A DNA stretch of 64,000 nucleotides from an uncultured virus (IMG/VR IMGVR_UViG_3300042483_000521) (IMGVR_UViG_3300042483_000521), one strand, 5' to 3'. Counted from the stretch's first letter, positions 1 through 50,950 are shown. Translations and numbers: made by a program. The notes: generated by a model not told the origin, from the sequence alone.

Positions 1-631
1 CACCAAAAACTGCTCTAAAGCTATCTCCAACACTAAAACCATTAGCAGGTACAGTTAGTGTACCAACTCCTGTGCCAATAAGTGTTGATTCAGTTGTTGT
101 ATTGGTAACAATAACACTATTAGCTGTTTGAGAATATAGTCCATATACCACTGGTAATGGAAGTACAGGAGAAGTTCCAGAAGATCCACTAGTTCCAGTT
201 GAACCTGAAGTACCAGATGTGCCACTTGATCCATCTCCACCAGCTGCTCCATCTAAGTTAACAGTCCATGAAGAATATGTTCCACTTCCTGTAACAGTAA
301 CAGGAGGACCTATCACCATTACACCAGTGTTGATGTCATAGCTTACAACAGTACAAGTTTGGTGGTTACCAACATTGTATGTTATAATAATATCTTGAGC
401 AGGCGTATAAGCTAATCCAGGTTCAACAACAATTGTTGTGCTTACACCTAACGTAAACGTTGTGGTGGAGGTAGTTCTAAATCTATCACCATCATACCCA
501 GAGGTGCCAGATGTTCCACTTGTACCAGAGATGGTACATAGTTGACAAGAAGCTTGATCTAACTGCTTGGATATTTGCCAAAGCAGGTTAGATTCTTGAC
601 TCCAACCAATTTGTCTATTAGGTATGCTCAT
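1..631 (-). CDS. Ser/Gly/Thr-repeat structural (fibre-like) protein, 3' end runs off the window
   Basis: Not in the ORF track. My manual translation from ATG 631 is open to the window edge: MSIPNRQIGWSQESNLLWQISKQLDQASCQLCTISGTSGTSGTSGYDGDRFRTTSTTT...GSSGTSGTSGSTGTSGSSGTSPVLP...SFRAVFG. The start overlaps the upstream stop (ATGA). Confidence 0.8.
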   Translation of the reverse strand, partial: MSIPNRQIGWSQESNLLWQISKQLDQASCQLCTISGTSGTSGTSGYDGDRFRTTSTTTFTLGVSTTIVVEPGLAYTPAQDIIITYNVGNHQTCTVVSYDINTGVMVIGPPVTVTGSGTYSSWTVNLDGAAGGDGSSGTSGTSGSTGTSGSSGTSPVLPLPVVYGLYSQTANSVIVTNTTTESTLIGTGVGTLTVPANGFSVGDSFRAVFG

Positions 632-778: not shown

Positions 779-808
779 TGAATTTATAAATAATTATTTA
801 TTATTCAA
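779..808 (-). promoter_or_regulatory. Putative Bacteroidota-type promoter
   Basis: Minus strand TTG-N19-TAAATTCA upstream of the 42-aa gene; a variant of the TTTG/TAnnTTTG consensus. Confidence 0.4.
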
Positions 809-1052
809 CACCATCATTATTTTTAGTCTTATTAATCCATTTATCTACAGAAGCAATTCCAAAAGAGCTTATTGTAATGACCATAAATCCATCAAAAATA
901 AACTCATGAATAGGAAGCTCTCTTCCCAATACACCTGATATAACATCTGTAAGTAGAACAACAATCATCATTAGAAAAGCAATGAATCCAACCACAGCCT
1001 TCTCATTGATGCTGTTCTGGTCATTGAATAAATCCTTAATGAACTGTTTCAT
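801..1052 (-). CDS. Putative holin / small two-TM membrane protein
   Basis: 83 aa with two hydrophobic segments and a charged C-terminus. It overlaps the stop of the M15 peptidase gene. Confidence 0.55.
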   Translation of the reverse strand: MKQFIKDLFNDQNSINEKAVVGFIAFLMMIVVLLTDVISGVLGRELPIHEFIFDGFMVITISSFGIASVDKWINKTKNNDGVE

Positions 1053-1513
1053 GTGATTACTTTATAAGATGTTTTACCATTCACTCTAACAGCTTTTAAC
1101 TTTTGCTTTCTGTTAGCTCCTTTAGCGTAGCTGACATGAACCCAATCAGGATTAAAATCTGTTCCAAACTCCCAAATCAATTGATCAAAATCAACTTTCT
1201 CTTTAATGAAATCAAATACCATTCTATTAGTCACGTCTCCATTGCCCCCATCCATGTCGATATCAATTGCTTGACCCTTACAATGTTGGCTTGACGAACT
1301 TCCCTTAATGAAATCATTCAGCTCTTTGCTTCTGTACGCACTCGAGATAAAAATAGGAGTATTGAAATGCTCACGAATTGGTTCAAATACTTTTTCTGCT
1401 AACAGTCTAAAGTTTTCTAAATGTTCTGCTGTGGGTGTATTATCAATACCCTGACGTTTGGCAGTATCGCTTCTAGTTATTTCTGCTAGTCTTAGATGTT
1501 TTGAAATCTGCAT
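1049..1513 (-). CDS. Peptidase M15-family endolysin (Zn peptidase)
   Basis: Motifs ISSAYRS, SQHCKGQAIDID (SxHxxGxAxD) and WVHVSY are typical of M15_3 peptidases. Flanked by membrane-protein genes. Confidence 0.85.
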   Translation of the reverse strand: MQISKHLRLAEITRSDTAKRQGIDNTPTAEHLENFRLLAEKVFEPIREHFNTPIFISSAYRSKELNDFIKGSSSSQHCKGQAIDIDMDGGNGDVTNRMVFDFIKEKVDFDQLIWEFGTDFNPDWVHVSYAKGANRKQKLKAVRVNGKTSYKVIT

Positions 1514-1519
1514 AACCTA

Positions 1520-1840
1520 TTAAGCTAAACTTGTATATATTTTAGTGATGTATTCTAGAAGTAGTAATGCTCCAATGATGATACCGCCTGTCCATGTGAT
1601 TCTTTTTCTGAATTCATCTTGCTTCTCAATCTTCTTCTCCATCAATGTCACTTTCTCTTCTAACATTTCTATCTTGTCCACAAATCCACCAGACTTTGTT
1701 AGAGGATTGCCTAGAATTGCATCCACCACTTGTGTAAGTTTCCCATCAATAGAAGACATCTTCTCCTCTAGGTCATAGAGACGCTGATCCATACTCTTTA
1801 ATTCGTTGTTAATTTGCTGCTGATACAAGTCAGTTGCCAT
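1520..1840 (-). CDS. Coiled-coil protein with C-terminal TM helix (lysis-associated, holin/antiholin-like)
   Basis: Heptad-like N-terminal region followed by hydrophobic WTGGIIIGALLLL. Directly upstream of the endolysin. Confidence 0.5.
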   Translation of the reverse strand: MATDLYQQQINNELKSMDQRLYDLEEKMSSIDGKLTQVVDAILGNPLTKSGGFVDKIEMLEEKVTLMEKKIEKQDEFRKRITWTGGIIIGALLLLEYITKIYTSLA

Positions 1841-1861
1841 GCTAGATTCATTTACAATGGT

Positions 1862-1898
1862 TCAAAACAACAAAGCACACCCCCTAATGAGGTGTGCT
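1862..1898 (-). terminator. Intrinsic terminator/attenuator upstream of lysis genes
   Basis: Stem AGCACACC (1874-1881) / GGTGTGCT (1891-1898), followed on the minus strand by TTGTTGTTTTG. Confidence 0.6.
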
Positions 1899-1944
1899 AT
1901 GGAGTTTTTGTTGGACGTTTTTATTCAATTCTGGCGAATAGTAG

Positions 1945-1976
1945 TAAATTTATAACATGTATTGATAACTACCAAA
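1945..1976 (-). promoter_or_regulatory. Putative Bacteroidota-type promoter, overlapping a divergent plus-strand candidate
   Basis: Minus strand TTTG-N20-TAAATTTA. Plus strand TTG(1962)-N18-TATATTTA(1983-1990) points to the glycosyltransferase gene. Confidence 0.5.
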
Positions 1977-2013
1977 AGTTCATATATTTAATTCGCAAAA
2001 AACCAATATCTAA

Positions 2014-4134
2014 GTGATTAATATAGACAAAAACAAAGAGGATAAATTTAGAATACTGTATCTAGCTCCACATTTATCAACAGGTGGTATGCCATCAGTT
2101 CTTCTAAAGAGAATACAGGCTCTAGAAGGATTTGATATAGAGATTATTGTTGTTGAGTATTCTAACCACAGCAATGAATATGTTGTGCAGAAGAATGAAA
2201 TCAAAAAACTTGTCCACAAGATGTACACACTTGTGGATAACAAGATGGAATTGATGGACATCATCAAGAGACACAATGTAGATCTTGTCCATATAGAAGA
2301 GATGGTGGAGGATAGTGTCAACAACTTTCCTATTGATCTATTGAATGATCTCTATGACAACAACAGGACATGGAGAATTGTAGAGACTTGTCACAATGTT
2401 TATTTCAAACCTGACATAGAGAAGAAGTATCATCCTGATGCTTACGTATTCTGCACACCATATCATCTAGAGACATTTAAGAATATGCCCTCTAGAAAAT
2501 TTGTTCTTGAGTATCCAATAGAGAATAAAATTCCATCAAAAGGAGAAAAGCTTTATGAAAAGGTGAAGCTTGGTATGAATCCATTAAAAACAAATGTTCT
2601 CAATGTAGGACTATGGACACCAGGAAAGAATCAAGCAGAAGGCGTAGAAATAGCTAGACAACTTCCTCAGATGGAGTTTCACTTTGTAGGAAACCAAGCT
2701 ATCAACTTCAAAGACTATTGGGAACCATTAATGCAAGATCTTCCAGACAATGTTCATGTATGGGGAGAGCGTAGTGATGTAGACAAGTTCATGACAGCCT
2801 GTGACATATTCATGTTTAATTCTACATGGGAATGCAATCCATTGGTTGTTCGTCAAGCAGCTAGTCATGGATTGCCCATCCTTGCAAGAAACCTTCCACA
2901 GTATGTAGGAATGTTTGATGGTTACATTACACCTCTGAAAGAAGATGATGTATTGGAGCAGCTTCTATCAATCAACGCACCAAGCAAAAGACCACTCAGT
3001 GAAGCACTATTCAATTTCAAAGTGGCTCAGATGTACATTTACAACACTGTGCTCACTAATGAAATCATGCTTCAGAAGATTGATATTGATATAAACTTTG
3101 TAGGTGGACCATTCTTTGAAATCACTGGCAGATCAAATAAAAACTATCTGGTAAAATTCTACGATGAAGATGATGTATGTGTCTATGAAAACACCATTAG
3201 ATCAAACAATTGGATAAGACTTAACAGAAAATGGTTTACTGCTTGGAGAATAAAAATGTGGGAGAATGATGTATTGATTTATGAATACAATCTAGATTAT
3301 ACTGATCAACGTGTCTACATATCACTAGAGAGCTCTTCATTAGGAGATTCTATAGCTTGGATGCCATACGCACTTGAGTTCAAGAAGAAACACAACTGCC
3401 ATGTTATTGTCAGCACGTTCAAGAACTTTCTTTTCCAGGATGTGTATCCAGAGCTTGAGTTTGTAGAGCCAGGAACAATTGTTAATAACATCAAAGGAAT
3501 GTATAATATTGGATGGTTCTACGACAGCAATAGAGAACCTGTACTTCCTAACACTATTCCTCTACAGAAGACAGCTACAAATATATTAGGACTAGACTAT
3601 GTGGAGATTAAGCCAAGACTAGCCTATACGCCTCGTGATGTATTTGATGGTAACATTGTTACAATAGCTACTAACTCTACAGCTGGTTGTAAGTTCTGGA
3701 CACGAGAAGCTTGGCAGGAGTTGATACATCATCTACACAATGAAGGATGTAGAGTGATTAATATATCTAAAGAAGACAATCCATTTGACAATTGTGAACC
3801 ACTAGAAGATAAGTCATTGCAGAGTGCAATGGATGCTATAAGCTATAGTGAGTTCTTTATAGGACTATCTAGTGGACTAAGCTGGTTAGCTTGGGCTATG
3901 AATAAGCCTGTTGTAATGATTGCAAACTTCACAGAAGAAGGGCATGAGTTTTCATGCATACGTCCCGTTAAGAAGAATGTATGTAATGGTTGTTGGAACA
4001 AGCCTGAATACAAGTTTGATAAAAGCTGGGACTGGTGTCCTGTACATGCTGGAACTGACAGACAATATGAATGTCAGAACAGCATTTTAGCAAATGATGT
4101 AATTAGATTGATTGATGAACACTCACTTATCTAA
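2014..4134 (+). CDS. Bifunctional glycosyltransferase: N-terminal GT4-like domain plus C-terminal AAH/TibC-like (autotransporter O-heptosyltransferase-type) domain
   Basis: N-terminal RILYLAPHLSTGGMP...NVGLWTPGKNQ...CDIFMFNSTWECNPLVVRQAASHGLPI fits GT-B/GT4. C-terminal SSSLGDSIAW, FFIGLSSGLSWLAWA and four Cys (CNGCW...WCP...EC) match the AAH/TibC pattern, including the iron-finger ligands. Confidence 0.8.
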   Translation: MINIDKNKEDKFRILYLAPHLSTGGMPSVLLKRIQALEGFDIEIIVVEYSNHSNEYVVQKNEIKKLVHKMYTLVDNKMELMDIIKRHNVDLVHIEEMVEDSVNNFPIDLLNDLYDNNRTWRIVETCHNVYFKPDIEKKYHPDAYVFCTPYHLETFKNMPSRKFVLEYPIENKIPSKGEKLYEKVKLGMNPLKTNVLNVGLWTPGKNQAEGVEIARQLPQMEFHFVGNQAINFKDYWEPLMQDLPDNVHVWGERSDVDKFMTACDIFMFNSTWECNPLVVRQAASHGLPILARNLPQYVGMFDGYITPLKEDDVLEQLLSINAPSKRPLSEALFNFKVAQMYIYNTVLTNEIMLQKIDIDINFVGGPFFEITGRSNKNYLVKFYDEDDVCVYENTIRSNNWIRLNRKWFTAWRIKMWENDVLIYEYNLDYTDQRVYISLESSSLGDSIAWMPYALEFKKKHNCHVIVSTFKNFLFQDVYPELEFVEPGTIVNNIKGMYNIGWFYDSNREPVLPNTIPLQKTATNILGLDYVEIKPRLAYTPRDVFDGNIVTIATNSTAGCKFWTREAWQELIHHLHNEGCRVINISKEDNPFDNCEPLEDKSLQSAMDAISYSEFFIGLSSGLSWLAWAMNKPVVMIANFTEEGHEFSCIRPVKKNVCNGCWNKPEYKFDKSWDWCPVHAGTDRQYECQNSILANDVIRLIDEHSLI

Positions 4135-4329
4135 ACCATACTTAATCCACTTGTACCAAATTCTCTCGTGAATAAAATACTGTAGAGGTTTCCATAGCAA
4201 TTCTGCTACACTAAATCCTACACCTGCTGATACTGATCCTGTAATAAACCACATTGCAAGAAAACCAATAGCTGTACTGATTATTCTGTAGCTGATAGTT
4301 TTAGCAATGTGTCTTTTATAGCTTACCAT
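4123..4329 (-). CDS. DUF2061-like small membrane protein
   Basis: RHIAKTISYRIIST...YFIHERIW matches the DUF2061 pattern; family often found beside sulfate-activation genes. Confidence 0.7.
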   Translation of the reverse strand: MVSYKRHIAKTISYRIISTAIGFLAMWFITGSVSAGVGFSVAELLWKPLQYFIHERIWYKWIKYGLDK

Positions 4330-4675
4330 CTTTTCGCATTTGTTCTCTGATGCCTGTTGCAGAAATCACTTTAACTTCCTCTGGAGGAAAGTGTTCTATG
4401 ATTTCGTAACCAACACCTCTACCATAGTTTACAGATTCAATATCTGGTATAATTGATATTGTAACTCTACCTTCCTGGATAAGATCTTGGAGTTCATTAG
4501 CTACGTTCAATAGCACTTCATTAGATGTCCAAGGTTGTTTTTCATTTGGTTCTACATCACGAATTGCCACCCACACATTCTTACCAAGATTTAATCGTTG
4601 ATCAATTAACCATCTGTGACCATCATGCCAAGGCTGCCATCTTCCTATGAACATAGAATATTGTTTACTACTCAT
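4316..4675 (-). CDS. HxGH nucleotidyltransferase (cytidylyltransferase-like fold; candidate minimal ATP sulfurylase)
   Basis: MFIGRWQPWHDGH (HxGH) and C-terminal ISATGIR motif. Coupled to the APS kinase gene. The substrate is inference. Confidence 0.7.
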   Translation of the reverse strand: MSSKQYSMFIGRWQPWHDGHRWLIDQRLNLGKNVWVAIRDVEPNEKQPWTSNEVLLNVANELQDLIQEGRVTISIIPDIESVNYGRGVGYEIIEHFPPEEVKVISATGIREQMRKDGKL

Positions 4676-5105
4676 TGGTTTCTAATTTATATATTAATCT
4701 AAATGAAATGGCGTTTATACATTCTTCAATTGAAAGCTTTGATGTGTCTAAGCATAAGACATCTTCTTCGTCAGGAGTATCAAAGTCTTTAACATGAAAG
4801 TTTTCTCTCCCTCTTTCTCCAGAATAGATTAGATACACCCACAGAACATCATTAGTTAAAGAGTTGAGATATTCACGAGCTTCTTTGTATGGATACACTA
4901 ATGATAATACAACAGGCTCCCCTGCACTATTTAGATAATGAGCAATGTCACTTGCTCTATTCAAGTTCTTGATTCTACCCTCTCTGCTGTAATCTTTGTT
5001 GGAAAATAATTCCCTTAGTTTATCTCCATCTATGTTGTGAGCATTAAGCTCAGCTGCTAATGTAGACTTACCACTATGTGGCTGACCAAATAATACTATT
5101 ATCAT
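4668..5105 (-). CDS. cysC: Adenylyl-sulfate (APS) kinase-like protein
   Basis: P-loop GQPHSGKST, IDGDKLR (cf. LDGDNxR), YSREGRIKNLNRA (cf. FSxEDRxEN) and VVLSLVYPY. Shorter than canonical CysC. Confidence 0.75.
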   Translation of the reverse strand: MIIVLFGQPHSGKSTLAAELNAHNIDGDKLRELFSNKDYSREGRIKNLNRASDIAHYLNSAGEPVVLSLVYPYKEAREYLNSLTNDVLWVYLIYSGERGRENFHVKDFDTPDEEDVLCLDTSKLSIEECINAISFRLIYKLETNE

Positions 5106-5923
5106 TTGCTGTATCTGAATTGTTTAAAGAACCACTCATAGTTAGTCCAAATCCAATCTGTAACATCCTTCCCTAGCAATGCCTTAGCTCTTGAAGATAC
5201 AGGCTCTAGTTTTTTACGAATGACATGATCACCAAAAGCACCATAGATTTCATCATCTTCTTTTGTTACCTGCTCTATGTTATCAAAGTCGTGTTGGAAA
5301 TGAGGGATGTCTAAGTATCGATATATCCTCATCATCTCTGTATCAGGATACAAGCAAAGGTCTTCAAACTTAACAAATAAAATCTTCTCTGCAATACCTG
5401 TTCTGAACATCTCACTTAGTCTTTCAATTGCTAATCCAACAGGAGGAGATTGGGCCCAAATATCAATACGTTTTGGGACGGTTGTACCTTGACCTTTAGA
5501 CCAATCCAAAATGTCTGACTGCTTCTCAGGATGCTTTCTGAAGTTATTCTCCATTGAAGCAAAGATATCACGAAGGTCTCTAACCATACAGACTATCTTT
5601 GGCTCACCACCTTGAACAAACTGTAAGAAGTCATAGTGAATGCCCCATCCTCTGCTTTTGTCCACTACATACTTCTTGTCTGTAATAGCATTATAGAATG
5701 CATCTATTCCATTTTTTGCAAATGCTTGCCAACCTTTTTTCATTAGCTCAGCATCCTGTGCTTTAAATTCAGGAGAGTTAGTGTAGTTAGCTCTAGCACC
5801 AAAGACCAGCTCCAACACTCCTGATGTTGGTGTTGCATATATATCAGGGTTTTGAGCTAATATATTTTGCAACAATGTACTTCCGCTTCTAGGTAGGGAA
5901 GATTGATAAAATAATTTTTCCAT
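5102..5923 (-). CDS. PAPS-dependent sulfotransferase
   Basis: 5'-PSB loop SLPRSGSTLL, DKSRGW, 3'-PB motif VRDLRDIFASM and KFEDL. Confidence 0.85.
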   Translation of the reverse strand: MEKLFYQSSLPRSGSTLLQNILAQNPDIYATPTSGVLELVFGARANYTNSPEFKAQDAELMKKGWQAFAKNGIDAFYNAITDKKYVVDKSRGWGIHYDFLQFVQGGEPKIVCMVRDLRDIFASMENNFRKHPEKQSDILDWSKGQGTTVPKRIDIWAQSPPVGLAIERLSEMFRTGIAEKILFVKFEDLCLYPDTEMMRIYRYLDIPHFQHDFDNIEQVTKEDDEIYGAFGDHVIRKKLEPVSSRAKALLGKDVTDWIWTNYEWFFKQFRYSK

Positions 5924-5929
5924 TTGGTT

Positions 5930-6796
5930 TTATTTGAATGATTTAATTATCTGATCTACATCAAATATCTCTAACTCATTATTGTAGGGAAACTCAACAG
6001 GGTCTCCCATCATATTAAATTTTGAGAAGTAGGAATTTCTCAATTCAGGTTTTACTGTATGAGGAAGTGCCTGAATGTTATTGTGAAGTTCATAACCAAA
6101 TACAATAGGACTATGTGCAATCCACAACACTGTAGATGGTAGATGTAAAGCAGCTGCTGCATGCTGAGAGAAACTATCCATAAGTAATCTTTTCTCACTA
6201 AGTAGCATGAGAACAAGAAGATGTCTAAAAGAGTCAAGTACACTGCTTGCTCCTTCATAGGCTATTTGATGTTCTCGTCTCATTTGAACAATGTGATAGT
6301 CATTTGAATATTCAGCTATCACTTTATTAACTACGTTAGCAGGAATGTCTCTAGCCCAAGAGTACTTCTGTTCTTCATTAGCTCCACCATTTGCATGGAT
6401 TAAAAAGATTGGCTTTTCTGAAATATATCCCTTACCTAAAAAATCTTTTTCTCTTTGCGTAAGGAATAGCTCACCATGTTTTTTAACTAATGGTAAGTCA
6501 TACATATTACACCAAGTCTCAATAAGATGCTCTTTTGATTTTATGTGATTTGTTTCTAGGTATGGTTCCTGAGCAAGAATTAGAACTTCTTGGTTCTCAA
6601 TGTATTCCTGATAAAAATAAGCCTGTTGACCAAATGCAAATGCTCTGTCAACATTTTTGTTTCCAAGAAATACTTCAGGGTATCCTGATACAACAATTAG
6701 TTTGTCGTTTGGATACTTCTCCTTTATAGAAGCACAAATAGCGGTACCAGCAATCACCTTGCCAATACCGCCACTTATTTGGAATATGATATTCAT
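5930..6796 (-). CDS. GT9-like glycosyltransferase
   Basis: N-terminal SGGIGKVIAGT and signature DSFSQHAAAALHLPSTVLW. Start moved to ATG 6796 because the track's TTG 6820 lies inside a promoter motif. Confidence 0.75.
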   Translation of the reverse strand: MNIIFQISGGIGKVIAGTAICASIKEKYPNDKLIVVSGYPEVFLGNKNVDRAFAFGQQAYFYQEYIENQEVLILAQEPYLETNHIKSKEHLIETWCNMYDLPLVKKHGELFLTQREKDFLGKGYISEKPIFLIHANGGANEEQKYSWARDIPANVVNKVIAEYSNDYHIVQMRREHQIAYEGASSVLDSFRHLLVLMLLSEKRLLMDSFSQHAAAALHLPSTVLWIAHSPIVFGYELHNNIQALPHTVKPELRNSYFSKFNMMGDPVEFPYNNELEIFDVDQIIKSFK

Positions 6797-6817
6797 TAGA
6801 CTAAATTTTGGTTTTAA

Positions 6818-6849
6818 CAAACCTATAAATAATCTATCAAATAATCAAA
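6818..6849 (-). promoter_or_regulatory. Consensus Bacteroidota sigma70 promoter for the GT9-sulfation operon
   Basis: Minus strand TTTG(6849-6846)-N20-TAGGTTTG(6825-6818), an exact match to the -33/-7 consensus. Confidence 0.7.
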
Positions 6850-6852
6850 TTT

Positions 6853-7200
6853 TTAGAAATTGTTTCCTTCAACGTCAACTGTTTCAACAACAGATGTACC
6901 AAGCTTAGACGCAACTGCTTCTAGTAGCACTGAATCATCTGTTCCCCAAGAAGCTAACTCATCAGCAGTTAGAACTAATTGAGAAGATTGAACACGATTA
7001 AATTTAGCAGGTTGTGGCTGCTCTCCTTCTACAGCAGGAGTGTAAGTTCCAAACTGAATTTCAAAGTTTGTTTGAGAAGCACCTGCTACATAAGGACGTG
7101 CTAAAGCAGTTAAGTAATCTGCTGTAGTAGTTGTTGGTTGAGCAAACGGATTATCTTGAGATACGAAAGTTGCTGCGGGATTAATTTTTGCTAGTAACAT
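6853..7200 (-). CDS. Hypothetical protein, probably fibre-associated
   Basis: 115-aa ORF directly downstream of the large fibre gene; no catalytic motif recognised. Confidence 0.55.
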   Translation of the reverse strand: MLLAKINPAATFVSQDNPFAQPTTTTADYLTALARPYVAGASQTNFEIQFGTYTPAVEGEQPQPAKFNRVQSSQLVLTADELASWGTDDSVLLEAVASKLGTSVVETVDVEGNNF

Positions 7201-7212
7201 GATTTTTATTAT

Positions 7213-10200
7213 TTAAAGTTTTTTAAGAATTTCTACTCCATCGAAGCCATTCTTAGCATCAATATCTTTACGTGTGCCAATGATAAGTACGTTATACTCT
7301 CCATCAGCATTTGATACAAAATTAACAGAATTCTGACAAGAGTCAATAACTCCATACGCACTACCAAAGTGTCCATTTGGAGTGACAAACACTTGGTCAT
7401 CTTCATTGAGGAACTTGTAGTAATCAGGAAGAGCTAATGTAGCATGACAGTTAGATGTTGTAATCTTATATCTATAGATGTTATCACCTCTTGTTGGAGA
7501 TTCTACAAACGAGTGCTGTAAGTAATGCGTTGCTGTCTTTGCAGGGTCAGGGTGGTTAATTCTAAATGTACCTGATGTCTTTGATAAAGCATTTACGTAT
7601 GTTGTACAATTAGCACTAGATGTTAAGTTAGAGCCAATTATAAAAGACTTACAGTGAGTTACTGTATTACTTTGACCACCTAAAATACCTGAAGCATATC
7701 CACTAGCTGAGTTTTGTACACCTCCTCCAACAAATGAGCGATTTCCTCCTGCTGTATTTGATGTACCCCCACCAATCGATGAATAATAATTACTAGCCGT
7801 ATTAAAAGACCCACCTGCTATAAATGAACGAACTCCACTCGCAGCGTTATTATTACCACCCACAACAGCTGAATAACCTCCACTAGCTGTATTAGAACGT
7901 CCACTACCAATAAATGAATAACTTCCACTAGCTGTATTTGAACGACCCCCTGCTATAGATGCAAAATTGGCTGAAGAAATATTGAATAGACCACCTAATA
8001 TAGTTGAATTATATCCACTAGATGTATTACTTCTACCACCACTAATAGTTGAATATGCGTTACTAGTTGTATTACCGCAACCACCTCCAACAGTTGAATA
8101 TCTACAACAAGTTTTATTATTACGACCACCTCCTATAAATGAATAACATGCAATTGAATCTGTTATGTTGCTTTGACCACCACCAACAAGTGATGCATAG
8201 CCACTAGCTGTATTACTTACTCCACCACCAATAAATGACCAAAAATTGCAAGTTATATTACTAGTACCCGTAACAATACCTGAATATGTACCATAAGCTT
8301 GGTTACTCGAGCCTACACCTATGAAAGTATAATCTCCACTAGCAGTATTACTAGCACCACCTGCAATAGTAGCACGATTACCACTAGCTATATTATTTAC
8401 TCCACCCCCAACAAATGTAAAAAAGTTTGTAGCTTGGTTATTTAAGCCTTTACCTATAATTGAACAATAACCTGAGCCTGAAACCATTACAGCACCTCCA
8501 CCACCTGATGAGGCAGTTAGAAGACCGTTAGACCCTATGCAAACTGAGCATCCTGAACATGAGTTAAAGCTACATATAGATAAATCATTGACGAATGTTG
8601 TACAGACTCTATTAGCTGTTATGTTTGAGCCAATTATAAATGAACAATTATAAGGACTATTTATTGTATTTTGTCTACCTCCTAATATACCTGCGTAATA
8701 CGCACTAGCTGAATTAAAAATACCATTGCCAACAAATGAATAAGACTTAGTAGCACAGTTAATTTGTCCTCCAACTACTGCTGAAAGACTACTACAAGTT
8801 ATATTTTGAGAACCACTTCCAATAAAGTTATTGCTTCCACAAGCTCTATTTCCATATCCTCCACTAATAGTGGCGGTAGAACCATAAACTATATTATTTT
8901 GACCCCCACCAATAAATGAACCTGATAAGAAAAGTCCACATATTTTATTAGCACAACCACTTGCTATACCTGAATAAGAAGGACTATAAGAACAACATCC
9001 TCCCTCAACAGTATTACACCAACCACCGCCTATAAATCCATAACTTCCAAATACAGTATTAGTACAACCTCCACCAATAACTGAATAATTTCCTGTACAA
9101 CAAGACAAATTGTTTTGACCACCACCTATAAATGAATAATTAGTACAATTACGATTGCAATATCCTGAAGTAACTCCTGAATAATTTTTGCAAACCGCAT
9201 TGAAATCTCCGCCTCCAATAAATGAACTACACGCACCTGATACAACATTTGTATCAACTGATACATAACTTGGATTAGTGGCGGTTGGACGAAAAAATGT
9301 AAAAATACCATTAAAAGACGGACTAAAAAGTACAGTCGTAGCACAACTCGTACTAGCTGTAAATAATGTTACAGGCTGTCCTTGTGGGAATAATGAAGTG
9401 ACATCACCATAGATTGGACTCAATGCAACATAATTACCATAATGACTAGAACAGGTTATAGCATAACTACACGTAACAGAAGAGTATGGTGCAATTTGAT
9501 TACTTGAGCCTCCTACTATACTTGAAGTAAGTCCTCCATTAGAATTAGCACATCCTCCACCTGTAAATGAAAAACTAGCTGAAGCAGTATTACAAGAACC
9601 ACCACCTATGAATGAAGCTACACCACAGGCTACGTTACCGCAACCAAATCCGCCTCCTCCTCCTACAAATGATAAACAACCTACTGCTCTATTGGTTCTT
9701 CCACCACCTATAGATGAGTAAGCACCACTAGCTGTGACACAATAGCCACCACTAATAGTTGAATTATTCCCACTAGCTGTATTTAATTGACCTCCGCCAA
9801 TAAATGAAGCGAGACCACTAGCTATGTTATATTGACCACCAACAACAGCTGATTTAGTTCCACAAGCTCGATTGTTAAATCCACCACTTATAACTGAAAC
9901 ACCACCACAAGCAATGTTAGTATGACCTCCACCAATAAATGATTCATATCCACTAGCTGTATTATTATAACCACCACTTACTGTTGAAAAACTTGCGGTA
10001 GCACTGTTACCACCAAAAGGCCCTCCGCCTCCGCCAACAAATGAATAACTTGCACTAACAGTGTTACTTTTTCCTCCCACTATTACAGAGTGATTTACAT
10101 AATAACCACTAATGGTATTAGAACTTCCTCCTGCAATTAGTGAATAACAAGTACCGCTTCCGCAAATTGTATTTAAACAACCGCCTCCAATAAAATTACC

Positions 10201-12486
10201 TTGAGCATATCCTGAAACAAATGGAGACTCATTAATAGTATTACATAATCCACCTACAATTGATGAAGAAAATATAGAAACATTATTGCAACAACCTCCA
10301 CCTATAAAGCTACCAACAGCTATATAGGACATTGTTCCATCAGAAATTATATTAGATTGACCTCCTCCTATAAATGAATAACATCCACTTGCAGTATTTT
10401 GATTTCCACTACCAATAAATGAACCACTACCACTTGAACAGTTAAATGAACCGCCTACTACAACTGAATATTGATTGCAAGATGTATTACCATATCCACT
10501 AACTGTTGCTGAATAGGTACCACTAGCCACATTAGGACTAAATCCTGCACCACCTCCACCTACAAATGAACCAAGTCCACTAGCTGTATTACTACTTCCT
10601 CCACCTACAAATGAATTAAAACCACTTGCTGTGTTGGATTGACCCCCACCTGCAAATGAATAGTTTCCTGATGCATTATTACTAACACACTCTCTTACAG
10701 AAGAACATGTTCCTGCACCAAGAATAATTACAGCGCTAGAGCCAACATTTATACCTGAAGTACCAGATGTACCACCAGTTCCTGTTGATCCAATTGCACC
10801 ATTAGTACCAGATGATCCACTAGATCCACTAGTTCCTCCAGTTCCATTTGTTCCAGATGATCCTGAAGAACCTGAAGTTCCAGTAGTTCCACTACTACCT
10901 GATGTACCATCACTACCAGAAGTACCTGATGTTCCTGAAGGAGCGTTGAATGTGGTTTGGGAATAGGAATAATATGTATTGCCCTCTGTATAGAATATAA
11001 TATCATAAGGACTGCCAGTTATATTCTGAGCAATTATCTTACAATAAACTCTATCTGTGTTACTTAAAGATATAGAAGAAAGGAACGTGTCCATGTAGAT
11101 CTGTTGAATCAGACCTAGGTTATATGTTAAGTTTATTATGTTTGTTGTACCTAGCAGAGTACCTGTTGTACCATCCCACTTGTAAACTTCAACATACACT
11201 TCGAAGTCAGCTGCTCCATTATTTAATTGGACGTGTAAAGTCCATGCCCACTGACCAGCAGGAATGAATGTAACACCTGGTACACCACTGTCTGATGCAT
11301 ACGTTTGAAGAGTTTGTGTAGCAGCACCAGCAATGTTTGTTGTAAATGATTGCTGAGCACCACCACTAGGGACTGGACTCCATTGCTTATATGTAGGAGT
11401 GCCAAAGGCAGAACTAGTATTAATTGATTGGTTTAGGTAATAAATTTGACCACCAGAGATACCATCTTGTCCAGAAGAACCAGATGTACCTGATGATCCA
11501 GATGTACCTGTGGTACCAGATGTTCCACTAGTAGCTGACGTACCAGAACTTCCAGAGCTACCAGAAGTACCAGATGTAGTGATTGGAAGAGCAGCTAATG
11601 AACCATCACCTTTTATGTACTGAGAAGATGTACCAGCAGCTGTAATGTTGATTGTTCCAGACGTTGTTACAGGACTGTTAGAAACACTGAATGCTGGAGG
11701 AACTGTAAGTCCTACAGAAGAGACAGTTCCTGGTGTGTAACCAAGAATTGCAGCTATGTCACCAGCTGTAATAGGACTAGCTCCTGTGATGAGTCCTTTA
11801 GCATTAACAGCAACCTTAAGAGCTGTTATTGTAGGATAGACGTTTAAGTTTACATTCTGTAGAAGAAGTGTAATTGGAGTTCCTGTAAAACCAGAACCAA
11901 CCACATCACCAATGAATGTCAATGGTTGTGGAGGAACTACTAAAGCTGTTGTGGTGAGGTTTGTTACTAAACCTTTTGCATTCACTGTTATAACAGGAAT
12001 GCTAGAACCTGCTCCAAAAGTACCAGGAGCACTGTTAACTGTGGCTAATGTAAGAGCTGCTGCACCAGGACCTGATGCTGTTCCATCACCAGTGAGTGAT
12101 GTAATATAGTTACCTGCTGGCTGATAGGATGTTGAATCCAATGTACCATCACCTTTTACAAACTGTGAAGATGTTCCACCAGTAGTAATATGTTTTGCAG
12201 CCTTTAGGTTTCCTGTAAACTCAAGAGTGAAGTTACCACCAATGGTAGTGTTCTGAATCAATGCACCTCCAAGTTGTACAGGAGAACTTAGTGTTGGTTG
12301 TATGATACCATTTGTAAAACCATAGCCTATTCCAGAGTTGGTGAAGGCTTGATTGATCTTCTGTATAACAACTTGAAGGTTGTCGTTTGTATTAACACCA
12401 ATGTACAGTAAGTCCTCTCCTGTGTAAAATACACAAGTGGAAGGAAGTAAAACTGGACAAGGATCAGGTGAACAATATTGATTCAT
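7213..12486 (-). CDS. Large tail fibre/adhesin with SGTSG tracts, Cys-rich GGxxN beta-solenoid repeats and a C-terminal chaperone-like domain
   Basis: N-terminal CxxxxCxxxxxxxCVFYTG module, two SGTSG tracts and dozens of ~15-aa SFIGGGxxNTASG repeats. The C-terminus FRINHPDP..YLQHSFVESP..NIYR resembles phage fibre intramolecular-chaperone tails. Confidence 0.75.
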   Translation of the reverse strand: MNQYCSPDPCPVLLPSTCVFYTGEDLLYIGVNTNDNLQVVIQKINQAFTNSGIGYGFTNGIIQPTLSSPVQLGGALIQNTTIGGNFTLEFTGNLKAAKHITTGGTSSQFVKGDGTLDSTSYQPAGNYITSLTGDGTASGPGAAALTLATVNSAPGTFGAGSSIPVITVNAKGLVTNLTTTALVVPPQPLTFIGDVVGSGFTGTPITLLLQNVNLNVYPTITALKVAVNAKGLITGASPITAGDIAAILGYTPGTVSSVGLTVPPAFSVSNSPVTTSGTINITAAGTSSQYIKGDGSLAALPITTSGTSGSSGSSGTSATSGTSGTTGTSGSSGTSGSSGQDGISGGQIYYLNQSINTSSAFGTPTYKQWSPVPSGGAQQSFTTNIAGAATQTLQTYASDSGVPGVTFIPAGQWAWTLHVQLNNGAADFEVYVEVYKWDGTTGTLLGTTNIINLTYNLGLIQQIYMDTFLSSISLSNTDRVYCKIIAQNITGSPYDIIFYTEGNTYYSYSQTTFNAPSGTSGTSGSDGTSGSSGTTGTSGSSGSSGTNGTGGTSGSSGSSGTNGAIGSTGTGGTSGTSGINVGSSAVIILGAGTCSSVRECVSNNASGNYSFAGGGQSNTASGFNSFVGGGSSNTASGLGSFVGGGGAGFSPNVASGTYSATVSGYGNTSCNQYSVVVGGSFNCSSGSGSFIGSGNQNTASGCYSFIGGGQSNIISDGTMSYIAVGSFIGGGCCNNVSIFSSSIVGGLCNTINESPFVSGYAQGNFIGGGCLNTICGSGTCYSLIAGGSSNTISGYYVNHSVIVGGKSNTVSASYSFVGGGGGPFGGNSATASFSTVSGGYNNTASGYESFIGGGHTNIACGGVSVISGGFNNRACGTKSAVVGGQYNIASGLASFIGGGQLNTASGNNSTISGGYCVTASGAYSSIGGGRTNRAVGCLSFVGGGGGFGCGNVACGVASFIGGGSCNTASASFSFTGGGCANSNGGLTSSIVGGSSNQIAPYSSVTCSYAITCSSHYGNYVALSPIYGDVTSLFPQGQPVTLFTASTSCATTVLFSPSFNGIFTFFRPTATNPSYVSVDTNVVSGACSSFIGGGDFNAVCKNYSGVTSGYCNRNCTNYSFIGGGQNNLSCCTGNYSVIGGGCTNTVFGSYGFIGGGWCNTVEGGCCSYSPSYSGIASGCANKICGLFLSGSFIGGGQNNIVYGSTATISGGYGNRACGSNNFIGSGSQNITCSSLSAVVGGQINCATKSYSFVGNGIFNSASAYYAGILGGRQNTINSPYNCSFIIGSNITANRVCTTFVNDLSICSFNSCSGCSVCIGSNGLLTASSGGGGAVMVSGSGYCSIIGKGLNNQATNFFTFVGGGVNNIASGNRATIAGGASNTASGDYTFIGVGSSNQAYGTYSGIVTGTSNITCNFWSFIGGGVSNTASGYASLVGGGQSNITDSIACYSFIGGGRNNKTCCRYSTVGGGCGNTTSNAYSTISGGRSNTSSGYNSTILGGLFNISSANFASIAGGRSNTASGSYSFIGSGRSNTASGGYSAVVGGNNNAASGVRSFIAGGSFNTASNYYSSIGGGTSNTAGGNRSFVGGGVQNSASGYASGILGGQSNTVTHCKSFIIGSNLTSSANCTTYVNALSKTSGTFRINHPDPAKTATHYLQHSFVESPTRGDNIYRYKITTSNCHATLALPDYYKFLNEDDQVFVTPNGHFGSAYGVIDSCQNSVNFVSNADGEYNVLIIGTRKDIDAKNGFDGVEILKKL
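7640..10720 (-). repeat. Degenerate ~45-nt (15-aa) coding tandem repeats
   Basis: Recurring plus-strand units such as ccaccaataaatgaa...ccactagctgtatt encode S(F/T)(I/V)(G/S)GGxxNxA(S/C)G. Boundaries approximate. Confidence 0.85.
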
Positions 12487-43877: not shown

Positions 43878-44333
43878 TTATGGGCATCCAATATTTAATG
43901 TTTGTTGAATCGAAGCGTCATACGTACCTGGAGCAATACAACTTGTTATACTAGCTCCTGTGTATGTATAATACTTAACTGGTGAACCAGGAAGAATATA
44001 TTGTTGACCTGCACCAAGAGTTGGCTGAATCAATGTAAATGCGCTATCCGCTGGATCACATCCTGCAAGTTGATAATATGTAGGACATGTAGTTGTTGTC
44101 GTGGTTGTTGGAGGATATGTAAGAGTTATGTCTATATAATTACTACATAAACCAGTTGACTTAACACGTACAATTGTAGTTCCAACAGGAGCAAGACTTG
44201 TTGAATATCCAGACACAAGAGCTGATTTAGAGACACCTGATACAAATGCTACTGTGTAACCATCTACATCAGAGAAGAGGTTAAATGGACCTGTATCTGT
44301 CCCAGCTGTGGTTAATGTTATTGTTATAGTCAT
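43878..44333 (-). CDS. Small structural/decoration protein with poly-Thr linker
   Basis: N-terminal TITLTTAGTDTGPFNLFSDVDGY domain (paralogous to 52279-52929), PPTTTTTTTC linker and Cys-containing C-terminal domain. Confidence 0.65.
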   Translation of the reverse strand: MTITITLTTAGTDTGPFNLFSDVDGYTVAFVSGVSKSALVSGYSTSLAPVGTTIVRVKSTGLCSNYIDITLTYPPTTTTTTTCPTYYQLAGCDPADSAFTLIQPTLGAGQQYILPGSPVKYYTYTGASITSCIAPGTYDASIQQTLNIGCP

Positions 44334-44369
44334 ATTTAAAATTTTAACAATATTCTTATTTATTTTATT

Positions 44370-47300
44370 TTAAGATGGTCCTACACAACACTCACTAATG
44401 CTTCCTGTTACAGGTATTACATCTGCGTAGTCAAATGTTGGACTTGCGACTTCACCACATGCAGGTAGTGGTGCGCACTGGATATCACTTGAAGCAATCA
44501 ATATATTACCAGTAGCTCCTGAAGGTATAAATGTACTTTGTGTTGAACTATCGCTATAATGTGCGGTTACATTTATATCAAATGGAGCTGGTATTTGAGT
44601 TCCACCGCAACCATCAAAGAATTCTATGCCCCAATTTGTTGTACTTTGGAAATAACCAGGACAATCAAAGCATTCACCACCAGGATCTTGTGTACCTGTT
44701 ATTGTATAACAATATGGACTACTCGTTGTCGTAGTTGTAGTTGTGGTTGGGATTTCAGTAGTAGTTGTAGTAGTTGTGGTTGGCTCTAATGTTGTAGTAG
44801 TAGTTGTAGTTGTTGGTTCAATAGTAGTAGTTGTTGTAGTGGTTGTAGGTGGAGGCGGGCTGCAATCACATTGTGGATCAAGACAACCAAAACCTTGAGA
44901 CAAGAACCCACAATCATCACTTATTACTTCACTCACACATGCTGTAAAACATAGTCCCACATCTTCTGATGGAATGTTTAGAGTAATTGTTACACCATTC
45001 TCATCTTTATACACAAACGTACATCCACCAAATGGTGCAGATTCTAATATATTACACTCAGCAGTAAGAGGTGTAGGTGTAGTGGTAGTAGTTGTTGTTG
45101 GAGAGGCAGTTGTAGTTGTAGTGGTAGTAGAACTTGTACTGGTAGTAGTTGTTGTTGTTGGCTCTCCTGTTGTAGTTGTTGTAGTGGTAGTTGGTGTAGC
45201 TGTGGTAGTTGTAGTGGTAGTTGTAGAACTTGTCGTACTAGTAGTTGTACTTGTGGTTGTACTAGTTGTAGACGTGGAGGTTGTAGAAGTTGTTGTTGAT
45301 GTTGTAGGAGGTCCTATATAACCATCACCTGCTAAATTACAATCTAAAGACACAATCACTCCAATACCTGCTAGAGAACAGTCTATCTGTTGAACTGTAG
45401 CTGTTATGTTACACTGCAAAGGAGCAACAGTAGTTGATGTCGTAGTGGTTGTTGATGTTGAAGTTGATGTCGTAGTTGTGGTAGTTGGATTTGGAACCAG
45501 TGTTCCCACTAGAAAATCAAAATCTTCACAGCAATTGTTTTGTCCAGAATAGAAGAAATTGTTCTCTGCAATGTAGAAGTTTGGAAGATAACTGTGGAAG
45601 CTTATCCAACTCTTTGTATTCATGTTGAAAGACAATGTCCACGACACATTACAGAAGTATTGTTCATCACTAACACTAACATTTTGTCTTATGGTTAGAC
45701 CATTGACAATGTTATTAATGTAAAACTCTTGTTCAACTGAATCATACAAAATGTTATTTGACTTTGGTGCATAATCAAGTTTTGTAATAATCACTCTATC
45801 GTATACAGCATCATACACACCATGCAATCCTATTCCCTTGAAGTGATTATCAATATTCACATCTGGGAAACTTCTATAGATTATGAATGGTAGATGCTCA
45901 ACAAAGAATCTGTTCATTCCTGATCCAAATGCAGACAAGTCAGTCACTTGTGTTCCTTGTACCAAGAACACTTGTCCTCTTTTTGCATCCACTGTAATTT
46001 GACCTTGAGGAATCTTCAAAAGCATTTTGTGTTGACTTCCTACATATCCAAGATCAGTTTCAGCAAAGTCAATTGGAGGAGCACCTCTAAATAACAATGG
46101 GTTACCTACATAAGCAGCTTGAGGGTTACTTGTATCAATAGTCAATAGATTATTGTACAACAATGTCTTGTTCTCAAATCTCGCTAGGATAGCTCTATTC
46201 TGTATACCATCTAAGCTTACAAGATTTCCATAGTTCTGTGGAAAATCAAAATAAGAAATAGCTCTATAAATAAGCCAGTTGTTCACTCTATTGTCAGCAT
46301 CAATATTCTGAGCATCAGAATAGATTGTTCTGAATGGATAGTTTGTAAAACAAAGTCTTGATTCCCAATCAGGAGGTAAATGGGTGAATGTATTCTCTTT
46401 GTTTTGCTTAGAGAATGTGGTATTATAGTAATAGGTGTTGTCTTGGGCAATAGGCACAAAACTTTCCTGAACCCAATCATCTGGAATGTCTGTACTAACA
46501 TGTGGCCAGAAGTCTCCTTCTCTATTGTTGAACGCTTGTCTTAAATCAAGATTGTAAGAACTTTCACAATAGAAGTTTGGAATACCATAGGCAAACAAAT
46601 AGAAGTAACCATCATAATATGTAATGGTTGAACTTGGTGTCACTTCCCCAGAACCACCTGGAGGGAAGGTTGTGGTAGTGGTAGTAGATGTAGATACGAT
46701 CACATCTGTTCCCACCTCATTAGGACAATCGAAGTTGTGTGCTTTGTAAGAAATGATATTTGCCATCACTCCTTGGCTAGGAATGCTGTAGTTCTCGAGA
46801 ATTGATCTCGCAGAATGCCAGTATCTAGGATAGGCAACGTTACCTATTTCATCATAGAAGATATCACTATCATCTGGAGCATTCACTCTATTGTCAATAA
46901 AGAATGGAAGCTTCGTCTTGAATGCAAATCTGCTAATGAATGTATCACCACCAAATACAGTGGTAGATGGATTAGGTGAGTTAATTATGTATTGATAACC
47001 TGTATCAATTGTTTCGTATGAATAGATTTGCCCCCACTGATTAATAATTAAGTCTTTCAGTGATGCATAATATGAAACAACTTGTATAGGTTCTTCTTTA
47101 GCTGGTGTTGAGCAGTTTCCTATTTCTGAAATAGTGAATCTTGATCTATCTGAAACAATACTTGTTGTTCCAGAAAGCATGTTTGGACTCTGGTTAGGAT
47201 AGGGGAGAGCTGTAGTGTCTTCGTTTGTTTTTACAAAGACAGAGCTTTCTCTGTTCCAGTTATTGATTGGAAGATCATCACCAAGAGCTTGTACACCTGG

Positions 47301-49967: not shown

Positions 49968-49973
49968 AACTTA

Positions 49974-50948
49974 TTAGTTGTTACGTCTCCTACCGTATCT
50001 ATTAGTTCTGTTAGGAAGCTCGTACATAGCAAATTTATTCAATTGTTGTCTTATTCTACGCTGCTTGGTCCAAACATCTTGCTTCTTAATTTCAATGTCT
50101 GCCATGATGAATGCTTCGTCAGAAAGACTTTTGTAATATACAAGTTTTTGCTGAAGCTGATTAAATGTTTCATCATTGGTTTGATTCACCAGCATTTCAA
50201 ACACTTTGTATTTAATGAAGTGTTCTAAATATTCTCTAATACGATAATTGTCAGGAATAAGCTGGTTTCCAAGACTGTCGTAATCTTGAGCATAGAAAAT
50301 AAGATGGACAACGCCATTTCTGAAATTCGTAACAAACTTGTTGTCTCTAATATCAAATGAATCATAAGTGGATGAACCTGGTGTAAAGTTACTAAATGGA
50401 ACAGCTGCTTGACCATACATTTCCCAGTTATCTGTATAGTTAACATCACAATGTCCTCTTGCAGAAATGTTTCCTGGCTTTAGAAGATATTGTCTTTGGT
50501 AGGTCATTGCTGTCTCATTATTTGTCTTGTAGACAGTCTGCATAAACTCAGGCATGCAAGAGCCATCACATCCTACATTTCCACAGCAAGGGCTTGGAAT
50601 AGTGCAGTCTGTAGTGATTGGGCTCACTTGTATAGTAGTTTGTGTAGATGCTTGTGAATAGAATGAGTTAGCTGTTTGATATGGAAAACCATTTATAACT
50701 GTACACATCCATGCTTCACGAACAGCATAAAAGTTATCTGGAAGTCTTGCTTCGAAGTTATCAACAACAAGAGCTGTCTCAGCTATCACATATGTGGCTC
50801 TTCCCAACTTTCTGAGACATTTGTCTAGATAGGTGGGGAATAACAAATCATCTACAGCACCTGTGTCAAAGTAGCTTTTTAATTCTTCTTTGACAGTAGA
50901 GTAGATTGGATCTGGACTTACGAAGTTAAATTTATAGTAATAGCTCAT
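49974..50948 (-). CDS. Tail tubular/ring protein (R1-like)
   Basis: Position between the HU-like gene and the muzzle matches crAss-like tail modules; ARLPDNFYAV and LIPDNYRIREYLEHFIKYK blocks. Confidence 0.6.
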   Translation of the reverse strand: MSYYYKFNFVSPDPIYSTVKEELKSYFDTGAVDDLLFPTYLDKCLRKLGRATYVIAETALVVDNFEARLPDNFYAVREAWMCTVINGFPYQTANSFYSQASTQTTIQVSPITTDCTIPSPCCGNVGCDGSCMPEFMQTVYKTNNETAMTYQRQYLLKPGNISARGHCDVNYTDNWEMYGQAAVPFSNFTPGSSTYDSFDIRDNKFVTNFRNGVVHLIFYAQDYDSLGNQLIPDNYRIREYLEHFIKYKVFEMLVNQTNDETFNQLQQKLVYYKSLSDEAFIMADIEIKKQDVWTKQRRIRQQLNKFAMYELPNRTNRYGRRRNN

Positions 50949-50950
50949 CT

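Follow-up and report, generated by a model that had tools for sequence, protein, structure and literature searches.

Glycosylation of the virion has been proven for few phages, and the sulfate donor 3'-phosphoadenosine 5'-phosphosulfate (PAPS) is made by Sat or CysDN plus CysC. Mycobacteriophages encode glycosyltransferases that act on virion proteins, at the C-termini of capsid and tail-tube proteins (Freeman et al. 2023, as cited in PMC12619734). In bacteria, the BAHT enzymes (TIGR04414; TibC acting on TibA and Aah on AIDA-I; structures 4RAP and 4RB4; PMC4358343) modify autotransporter beta-helices, and their genes lie beside that of a Ser/Thr-rich repeat protein. Here we analyse 64,000 nucleotides (nt) of DNA from an uncultured virus (IMG/VR IMGVR_UViG_3300042483_000521), the whole of which we call the window, and in it six adjacent genes for a GT4 and TibC-like fusion, a DUF2061 protein, an HxGH nucleotidyltransferase, an adenosine 5'-phosphosulfate (APS) kinase-like protein, a sulfotransferase and a GT9-fold protein. 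A sequence-only reading had joined them into one linear pathway that primes Ser/Thr residues of virion proteins, extends the glycan and sulfates it. We find two modules instead of one pathway, each of which accompanies a domain of its own in the phage fibre.

We propose that two independent modules of the phage act in the host cytoplasm to modify the tail fibre of the phage itself, a reading to which we give a probability of about 0.5 as a whole. The TibC-like domain of module 1 would place a sugar on Ser/Thr of proline-free Gly-X-Y stretches, the fused GT4 domain may append a second sugar, and glycosylation would probably let the triple helix fold or remain soluble. In module 2, the HxGH protein would make APS from ATP and sulfate, and the kinase would convert it to PAPS; the GT9-fold protein would put a sugar on the beta-roll repeats of the fibre, and the sulfotransferase would sulfate that sugar. 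The sugars would be drawn from the host pool, module 2 would be swapped together with the outer fibre, and the anionic fibre surface may change host range or adsorption.

Two gene modules and the fibre domains they accompany

The phage is crAss-like by a Crass capsid, muzzle and two ring proteins over Pfam cut-offs (PF23898, PF25731, PF24228, PF25702), and the window covers its structural half. The likely target of both modules is its large fibre protein (Table 1), which resembles a putative tail fiber of cyanophage Cy-LDV1. The Ser/Cys-rich beta-roll repeats of this protein have a 15-residue period, contain 48 Cys and match the UspA1 head (3pr7) at E 5e-18, a low-complexity match. For comparison we used 50 whole records, 40 chosen by the TibC-like gene and 10 by capsid, together with three sets of 80 loci selected by the TibC-like, HxGH or sulfotransferase gene; the GenBank phage set was also searched with the TibC-like, sulfotransferase and GT9-fold proteins. 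All locus and record sets contain near-copies and adjacent genes are exchanged jointly, so that raw p-values are too optimistic.

Module 1 is core in this phage group and module 2 is optional. The GT4-TibC gene is present in each of the four distinct near relatives, whose head genes show about 90% DNA identity (G001 and G003 are one record), and only G004 and G006 have the sulfotransferase. The fibres of G003 are collagen-only, and that of G004 combines collagen with 19 repeats. Among the 16 records at least 90% complete, 13 of them picked by TIGR04414, this family was found in 16 and the sulfotransferase in 6. Around the 80 sulfotransferase-selected genes, GT9-fold (74), kinase (71), HxGH (63) and DUF2061 (63) genes are the usual neighbours and a TibC-like gene is seen in 27; it is absent from the other 53 (from 16 of 34 among loci of at least 18 kb). 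Conversely, 60 of the 80 TibC-selected loci lack the sulfotransferase. These counts do not support the linear pathway, the modules being often apart and each having its own fibre domain.

Collagen-like open reading frames (ORFs) accompany module 1. They occur in 60/80 TibC-selected and 7/80 HxGH-selected loci. Of the 32 sulfotransferase loci that are fully flanked, 17 have a TibC-like gene and 15 do not; collagen is present in 14 of the former and in none of the latter. TIGR04414 was found in 16 of 39 records picked by Gly-Thr-Ser stretches and in 0 of 43 picked by Gly-Pro-Gln stretches (the first set consists of 39 records searched from the 43 of 64 contigs that are at least 20 kb long, the second of 43 searched from 45). 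Beta-roll repeats accompany module 2: 11 of the 20 TibC loci with a sulfotransferase have them, versus none of the 60 without, as do 57 of the 80 sulfotransferase loci. In the 50 whole records, sulfotransferase and repeats occur together in 12, the sulfotransferase alone in 4, repeats alone in 1 (a fragment) and neither in 33; the 16 records at least 90% complete divide into 6 with both and 10 with neither, with no exception. Of 64 contigs picked by beta-roll sequence (from the first 80 among 142 stretches), 24 had the sulfotransferase, against 1 of 64 picked by collagen, and 25 of 42 beta-roll loci with downstream room have a sulfotransferase or GT9-fold gene. The earlier idea that these genes decorate a virion fibre is thus supported by co-occurrence with fibre repeats, as well as by the residue conservation described below. 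The joint label required 8 changes and was unclustered on a tree built from capsid DNA with 26 rows, from which G149 and G154 were omitted because they have no full gene.

Several points speak against pairing enzymes with targets in this way. The Gly-Pro-Gln control is not matched in habitat or lineage; only 9 of 64 collagen-picked contigs have a TibC-like gene within the fetched flanks, and 55 have none; 17 of the 42 beta-roll loci with room have neither a GT9-fold nor a sulfotransferase gene; and G005, G146, G149 and G164 have the sulfotransferase without repeats. The tree offers 4-5 independent pairs, of which 3.6-3.7 run in the same direction and 0 in the opposite one (p 0.125), so that this tree-corrected test was not significant. 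Adjacent genes recombine as blocks and the loci are redundant, and linkage need not mean enzyme plus target. Finally, the chemistry is inferred throughout from genes, folds, residues and co-occurrence.

Co-occurrence with Ser/Thr-rich structural genes, which the sequence-only reading had put forward as a check, was borne out for collagen-like, SGTSG-type sequences and was weaker for poly-Thr. Poly-Thr tracts with mixed codons occur in the muzzle protein and at least four other ORFs (window 43878-56888, several small structural ORFs). As a target of the TibC-like enzyme they were rejected: a 338-amino-acid (aa) gene without Pfam match tracks them better than the TibC-like gene does (29/31 versus 10/49 in the TibC set; e.g. 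L083:5558-6574). This third gene is not in the window; it is present in 5/5 relatives, just past the left edge in those mapped, and probably lies just left of the window edge here.

Enzymes of the two modules and competing explanations

The GT4-TibC fusion scores 252.5 bits against TIGR04414 (Aah/TibC; curated cut-off 200) and matches the TibC structure 4rap at E 3.5e-44; its GT4 domain matched PF00534 and PF13692 over cut-off, and PF01075 was also matched. BAHT enzymes have a beta-barrel at the N-terminus, and the 4rap match begins at TibC residue 60. We took the TibC residues demonstrated to be essential from the accessible text of PMC4358343. Asp110 (the catalytic base), Thr226, Lys230 and Trp305 correspond to D445, T556, K560 and W624, and among 64 distinct phage TibC-like domains the first three are kept in 64 and the Trp in 63. 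Each iron-finger Cys (C657, C660, C675, C687) is present in 61/64 homologs, and TibC Pro300 is Ser in the phage domains, as in Aah. Beside these agreements there are three departures. Arg286, which selects adenine in TibC according to the same text, is never kept (A605 in the window; Thr in 57/64 and Arg in 0/64 phage domains); the beta-hairpin thumb (dodecamer, Phe265/Val266) is cut short by about 10 residues and lacks the Phe/Val pair; and the GT4 motif of the window protein, E273-X7-Q281, has Gln in place of the second Glu, which is Glu in 48/52 homologs. We regard the protein as BAHT-like, with a donor that need not be ADP-heptose, as had been suspected from the sequence. Judged by its residues, it appears to work like BAHT as a divergent phage branch, and we do not class it as a BAHT member. 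That module 1 glycosylates a Ser/Thr protein of the phage itself is, in our estimate, probable.

The window had also been said to lack sugar-donor genes, and a search with profiles of the relatives' heptose, FkbM and related genes likewise gave no match within it. HldE-like kinase and nucleotidyltransferase genes occur in only two of the four distinct near relatives (G004 and G006), where they sit inside the sulfation operon together with an epimerase; gmhA was found in 0/5 relatives examined. In some relatives (L083:11522-14153, L106, L112) the genes inserted within the sulfation operon encode an epimerase, an HldE-like kinase and nucleotidyltransferase, and HAD and cupin proteins. In GenBank phages, the TibC-like domain was found in three uncultured records and a single cultured isolate, Microcystis phage Mel-JY01 (L323:4750-8430), in which a gene annotated as FkbM methyltransferase has a C-terminal TibC-like domain. 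In 31/80 loci (e.g. L146:11050-11418) the TibC-like gene has an antisense DUF6165 gene at its end; the window has no such gene.

Module 2 depends on activated sulfate, and its HxGH protein is likely a miniature ATP sulfurylase. The earlier call of an HxGH nucleotidyltransferase passed narrowly, with a CTP_transf_like score of 21.9 just above the cut-off of 21 and the motif GRWQPxHxGH. Further support comes from bacterial homologs, of which the best 80 of 479 confirmed loci were used. In 36 of them aprB and aprA (NCBIfam names) are present, and in 35 of these the HxGH gene lies less than 1.3 kb upstream of aprB-aprA, with one membrane-protein gene in between that we take, by position, to be aprM. 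In sat-aprMBA loci it is sat that precedes the apr genes. The 35 loci are all of Pelagibacteraceae (L204-L240, match near 6001-6350) and amount to about one event. An APS-kinase-like gene is present in 40 of the other 44 loci, and 18 loci have, next to the pair, a member of a protein cluster represented by a Sulfotransfer_5 sequence. Among the best 120 longer homologs, 87 have PF01583 fused to HxGH, and in P0200 the partner is a full canonical APS kinase (PF01583 E 1e-69). The phage kinase scores 42.3 bits against PF01583, over the cut-off, with APS kinases as its best solved matches and an invariant P-loop and DGD. Its assignment as an APS kinase thus stands on PF01583 and P-loop and falls short of the apsK equivalog (35.8 versus 138.7 bits) and of the lid, the canonical APS-kinase lid motif being present in 0/142 phage kinase homologs. 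The position before aprBA and the pairing with the kinase together suggest an ATP sulfurylase that closes the PAPS pathway, and production of PAPS by the two proteins seems as likely to us as the sulfurylase itself.

A competing explanation, which we hold to be unlikely, is that the pair activates something other than sulfate, such as NMN (nicotinamide mononucleotide) or phosphoramidate, with PAPS supplied by the host. Sat-type ATP sulfurylases have a Gln-x-Arg-Asn motif, which the HxGH protein lacks, as it lacks a PF01747 match; it is nearest NMNAT/NadM by sequence and fold. The fold scores of its model are tied and all below 8 (NadM Z 7.1, NMNAT 6.5, ATP sulfurylase 1v47 Z 6.2 with a root-mean-square deviation (rmsd) of 3.2 over 86 aligned residues), Foldseek with the model gave no match at E 0.001, and the NadM NCBIfam cut-off was not reached (29.7 versus 127 bits). 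The kinase has the divergent PRK05541 subfamily as its best NCBIfam model, the HxGH and kinase genes are missing from several loci in which the GT9-fold and sulfotransferase genes are present, and 72/80 HxGH-selected loci have the pair without this sulfotransferase. The cultured phages Sano (L321:7584-8321) and DLP_6 (L322:7611-8342) have a kinase-HxGH fusion with no annotated glycan genes nearby. The missing Sat motif, the likeness to NMNAT/NadM and these two fusions tell against sulfate activation. They are countered by the aprB-aprA context, the canonical fusion in P0200, the Sulfotransfer_5 neighbours and the gene content of the bacteria: in 50 of the 80 genomes (incomplete) that were scanned, Sat was found in 1, CysD in 2 and NadD over cut-off in 38, so that the genomes have their own NadD and mostly neither Sat nor CysD. 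As side observations, an N6/N4 DNA methylase gene adjoins the kinase-HxGH pair in 33/80 HxGH-selected viral loci (L030-L067, others), a few further bacterial HxGH loci look viral, and four proteins of about 320 aa (P0137, P0140, P0161, P0185) join an N-terminal domain, endonuclease-like by eye, to an HxGH domain.

Quite unlikely, in our view, is action of the enzymes on host lipopolysaccharide (LPS), capsule, small molecules or sulfur metabolism, the genes hitch-hiking with the fibre in a variable island. GT9 enzymes work on LPS, bacterial HxGH-kinase pairs occur in polysaccharide loci, the accessible part of 10.1101/2020.08.24.253096 counts cysC of phages as an auxiliary gene for assimilation, and the lack of significance in the tree-corrected test fits this explanation as well. 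Hitch-hiking, however, does not predict a module-specific choice of repeat across crAss-like and sheath-bearing phages; TibC-type enzymes have been shown to act on proteins, and a sulfotransferase that consumes PAPS is encoded in the same operon.

The linear pathway, in which the TibC-like enzyme primes, the GT4 and GT9-fold proteins extend and the sulfotransferase caps, is improbable. The genes are adjacent here and in the 27 sulfotransferase loci with a TibC-like neighbour, the TibC-like gene lies within the operon in some relatives (L620, L624), and G164 combines the sulfotransferase with a collagen-only fibre. These cases are outweighed by the 53 loci without the neighbour, by G163 (86% complete), which has sulfotransferase and repeats and no TIGR04414 match, and by the tracking of separate fibre domains by the modules and of poly-Thr by another gene.

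In the preferred two-module reading it is fairly likely that sulfate ends on the beta-roll fibre; if so, a sugar placed by the GT9-fold protein is a somewhat favoured site for it. In the sulfotransferase, R12, G14, T16, R115, D116 and S123 are invariant in 19 rows. Both motifs by which PAPS enzymes are recognised in the accessible text of PMC11625862, a PSB-loop Lys/Arg and a PB-helix Ser, are present (R12 and S123); sulfotransferase genes have been noted in giant viruses in the same source. GenBank phages with the sulfotransferase comprise three named cyanophages and four marine virus records, and the GT9-fold protein was found in three records. The whole operon also lies on contigs L162, L201 and L202, which are binned in bacterial metagenome-assembled genomes and look viral; two of them have upstream beta-roll ORFs.

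The GT9-fold protein had no Pfam or NCBIfam match (for PF01075, none at E 0.1), and its alignment found no match in a sequence search of solved structures. Its predicted structure (mean model confidence, pLDDT, 87) matched WaaF at E 4.5e-11, with Z 19.3 to GT9 (rmsd 3.7, 262 aligned) and Z 15.1 to TibC, and PF01075 occurs in 45% of one Atlas cluster resembling the protein. The GT9-like assignment therefore holds for a predicted GT-B fold nearest WaaC/WaaF, and not for the PF01075 match or the catalytic Asp. An O-fucosyltransferase-like fold, suggested by the GGxGK start, was absent among the 50 structure matches listed. What weighs against a sugar-placing role is K13, which aligns with D445, the catalytic Asp being replaced by Lys; the Lys is present in 129 of 137 filled rows (from the best 150 of 1757 representatives), and could mean binding of an anionic sugar or be the sign of an adaptor. 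We consider the role of sugar-placer most likely because the donor-site residues of the family are kept, because it is fused with glycan enzymes (3 of 12 long homologs scanned to GT25 and 3 to FkbM), because it hardly ever occurs without the sulfotransferase and because the repeats have no acidic Tyr sites; we infer that sulfate sits on the sugar rather than elsewhere.

Direct sulfation of a beta-roll amino acid (Tyr, Ser, Thr or Cys), with the GT9-fold protein an inactive adaptor or separate, would fit several of these data and is nevertheless quite improbable. The nearest solved sulfotransferases are TPST1/2 (E 3.5e-11), which act on protein tyrosine, followed by CurM-type enzymes; the GT9-fold protein lacks the catalytic Asp; and the repeats contain more Cys where module 2 adjoins them than they do elsewhere (p about 0.001). 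A predicted complex of the sulfotransferase and GT9-fold protein received weak support (score 0.39 versus 0.00 for the best control; at least 45% contact agreement between runs; partner pLDDT at least 88). Of 157 solved pairs 116 reached the mark, as did 2 of 215 mismatched ones; 18 of the 157 and both mismatches did so at 0.60 or less. The prediction fits an adaptor equally well and does not separate it from a glycosyltransferase. Against direct sulfation, the column that we take to hold the TPST catalytic Glu is Thr33 in the window protein. Tyrosylprotein sulfotransferases prefer an acidic neighbourhood, and not one of the 49 Tyr in the beta-roll has three acidic residues beside it; Tyr content shows no enrichment beside module 2 (p 0.44), and the donor site and fusions of the GT9-fold family also argue for a sugar. 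DNA hypermodification is barely credible: phage glycosyltransferases do modify DNA (10.1101/2023.12.21.572611) and other phages have a methylase beside the HxGH-kinase pair, but the genes here have fibre and lysis genes as neighbours and vary together with the fibre repeats, and the accessible part of that source makes no mention of a sulfotransferase.

Gene layout and neighbouring features

All six ORFs lie where they had been placed, between the fibre gene with its accompanying 115-aa ORF and the lysis genes (Table 1), and gene-by-gene HMM searches upheld the GT4 and TibC-like, DUF2061 and sulfotransferase calls, the sulfotransferase over its Pfam cut-off. The five minus-strand genes are spaced by +6, -4, -8 and -14 nt, and the plus-strand GT4-TibC gene is convergent with them, with an overlap of 12 nt. 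The coupling of five genes was therefore confirmed; the consensus promoter ahead of them is less certain. What we take to be the Bacteroidota consensus, TTTG-N20-TAnnTTTG, is found at 6849-6818, 21 nt upstream of the ATG of the GT9-like gene, and occurs in the window no more rarely than by chance (2 seen, 2.1 expected), though it lies at most 120 nt upstream of the GT9-like gene in 16/71 relatives (-7 box in 27/71). A sigma-70 promoter scan of the window was uninformative (19 seen, 27.3 expected). A terminator-like hairpin at 1874-1898 (minus strand), between the GT4-TibC start and the lysis genes, could be a stop against read-through from the sulfation operon into the lysis genes.

Elsewhere in the window, at 18462-33485 (minus strand), an ORF of 5007 aa has a Dda/RecD-like helicase and DUF7831 towards the C-terminal end; the genes around it are very large and probably cargo. 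The runs with the best coverage of the window stretch are lake-water metagenomes; a single run, possibly the source, has contigs identical to the window over 1715-4366, 4353-7112 and 7166-10878, and no RNA run is among the listed runs containing the stretch.

Table 1. Features of the window, with positions counted from its first nucleotide
Positions	Strand	Feature	Basis
2014..4134	+	GT4 and TibC/Aah-like fusion, 706 aa, module 1	Pfam, TIGR04414, 4rap match
4123..4329	-	Small membrane protein of the DUF2061 family, end of module 2	PF09834, 51.7 bits
4316..4675	-	HxGH nucleotidyltransferase, 119 aa, probable miniature ATP sulfurylase	CTP_transf_like, gene context
4668..5105	-	APS-kinase-like protein, short lid, 145 aa	PF01583
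5102..5923	-	PAPS-dependent sulfotransferase, 273 aa	PF13469 (Sulfotransfer_3), PF00685 (Sulfotransfer_1)
5930..6796	-	GT9-fold protein of 288 aa, Lys at catalytic Asp, start of module 2	structure model
6818..6849	-	Bacteroidota-type promoter motif upstream of module 2	TTTG-N20-TAnnTTTG
6853..7200	-	ORF of 115 aa between fibre and module 2	no family match
7213..12486	-	Fibre protein, 1757 aa, likely target of both modules	Pfam Collagen, UspA1 head match
7696..10635	-	28 UspA1/YadA-like beta-roll repeats, fibre aa 618-1597	tracks module 2
10747..10935	-	Proline-free Gly-X-Y collagen-like stretch, fibre aa 518-580	tracks module 1
11470..11577	-	Second stretch, Gly-Ser/Thr-Ser/Thr, fibre aa 304-339	sequence
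2..631	-	Edge-cut ORF containing short collagen-like SGTSG stretches, may be another target of module 1	sequence
801..1840	-	Lysis genes: holin-like ORF (no family match), M15 peptidase endolysin, XhlA-like ORF	flanking context
44724..45485	-	Poly-Thr tail of crAss muzzle protein	tracks third gene, not module 1 or 2

Relation to described systems

The gene sets are widespread in aquatic phages and apparently undescribed in print; our search, with most subscription papers and all supplements outside its view, turned up no publication on TibC-like enzymes of phages, on sulfated virions of phages or on this nucleotidyltransferase. If the proposal is right, an abundant group of lake phages has sugar-coated, sulfated fibres, and swappable blocks of enzyme and target could set host range and survival in water. 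The 119-aa protein would be a third family of sulfate-activating enzymes, occupying the sat position in SAR11 aprBA loci, and many phage cysC genes now assigned to auxiliary sulfur metabolism would instead serve to decorate the virion. As candidate tools, the TibC-like and Lys-bearing GT9-fold enzymes could serve for O-glycosylation and sulfation of proteins in bacteria. More speculatively, aquatic phages might use a mix-and-match code of fibre decoration with one enzyme set per repeat type, the TibC-like enzyme for Gly-Ser/Thr collagen, the Lys-bearing GT9-fold protein and sulfotransferase for the adhesin-like beta-roll and a third enzyme for poly-Thr; it is an equally tentative thought that such a code includes the first sulfated glycoprotein phage virions and an undescribed 120-aa ATP sulfurylase partnering APS reductase in SAR11.

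Each part of the locus has a described counterpart. The two-lobe GT-B fold of WaaC/WaaF (GT9) is shared by the modelled GT9-fold protein (Z 17-19), which differs in its Lys at the catalytic Asp, in lying below Pfam detection and in being coupled to a sulfotransferase. TPST1/2 and the Sulfotransfer_3 enzymes NodH, NoeE and CurM have the same Arg-type PAPS loop and 3'-phosphate Ser as the phage sulfotransferase, which does not keep the TPST Glu and belongs to a viral clade. Bifunctional PAPS synthases (1x6v, 2gks) likewise pair or fuse an HxGH nucleotidyltransferase with an APS kinase, and the position in sat-aprMBA is the same; in the phage pair the nucleotidyltransferase has 119 aa, no PF01747 match and closer likeness to NMNAT, and the kinase has a short lid. 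The glycosylated Thr of Riftia worm cuticle collagen is tied to stability (review PMC11766948, accessible part); its Gly-X-Y repeats are similarly rich in hydroxy amino acids, and the phage fibre may be a parallel to this animal protein. Compared with mycobacteriophages, fibre repeats would take the place of capsid and tail-tube termini, other enzyme families are involved, and sulfation would be added. The closest parallel is BAHT, which has the same catalytic Asp, Thr/Lys phosphate site, Trp and iron-finger Cys and the same placement beside a Ser/Thr-rich repeat protein; the phage version is fused to GT4, lacks Arg286 and the beta-hairpin thumb, has no heptose genes with it in the window, and tracks collagen-like sequence where BAHT targets an autotransporter beta-helix.

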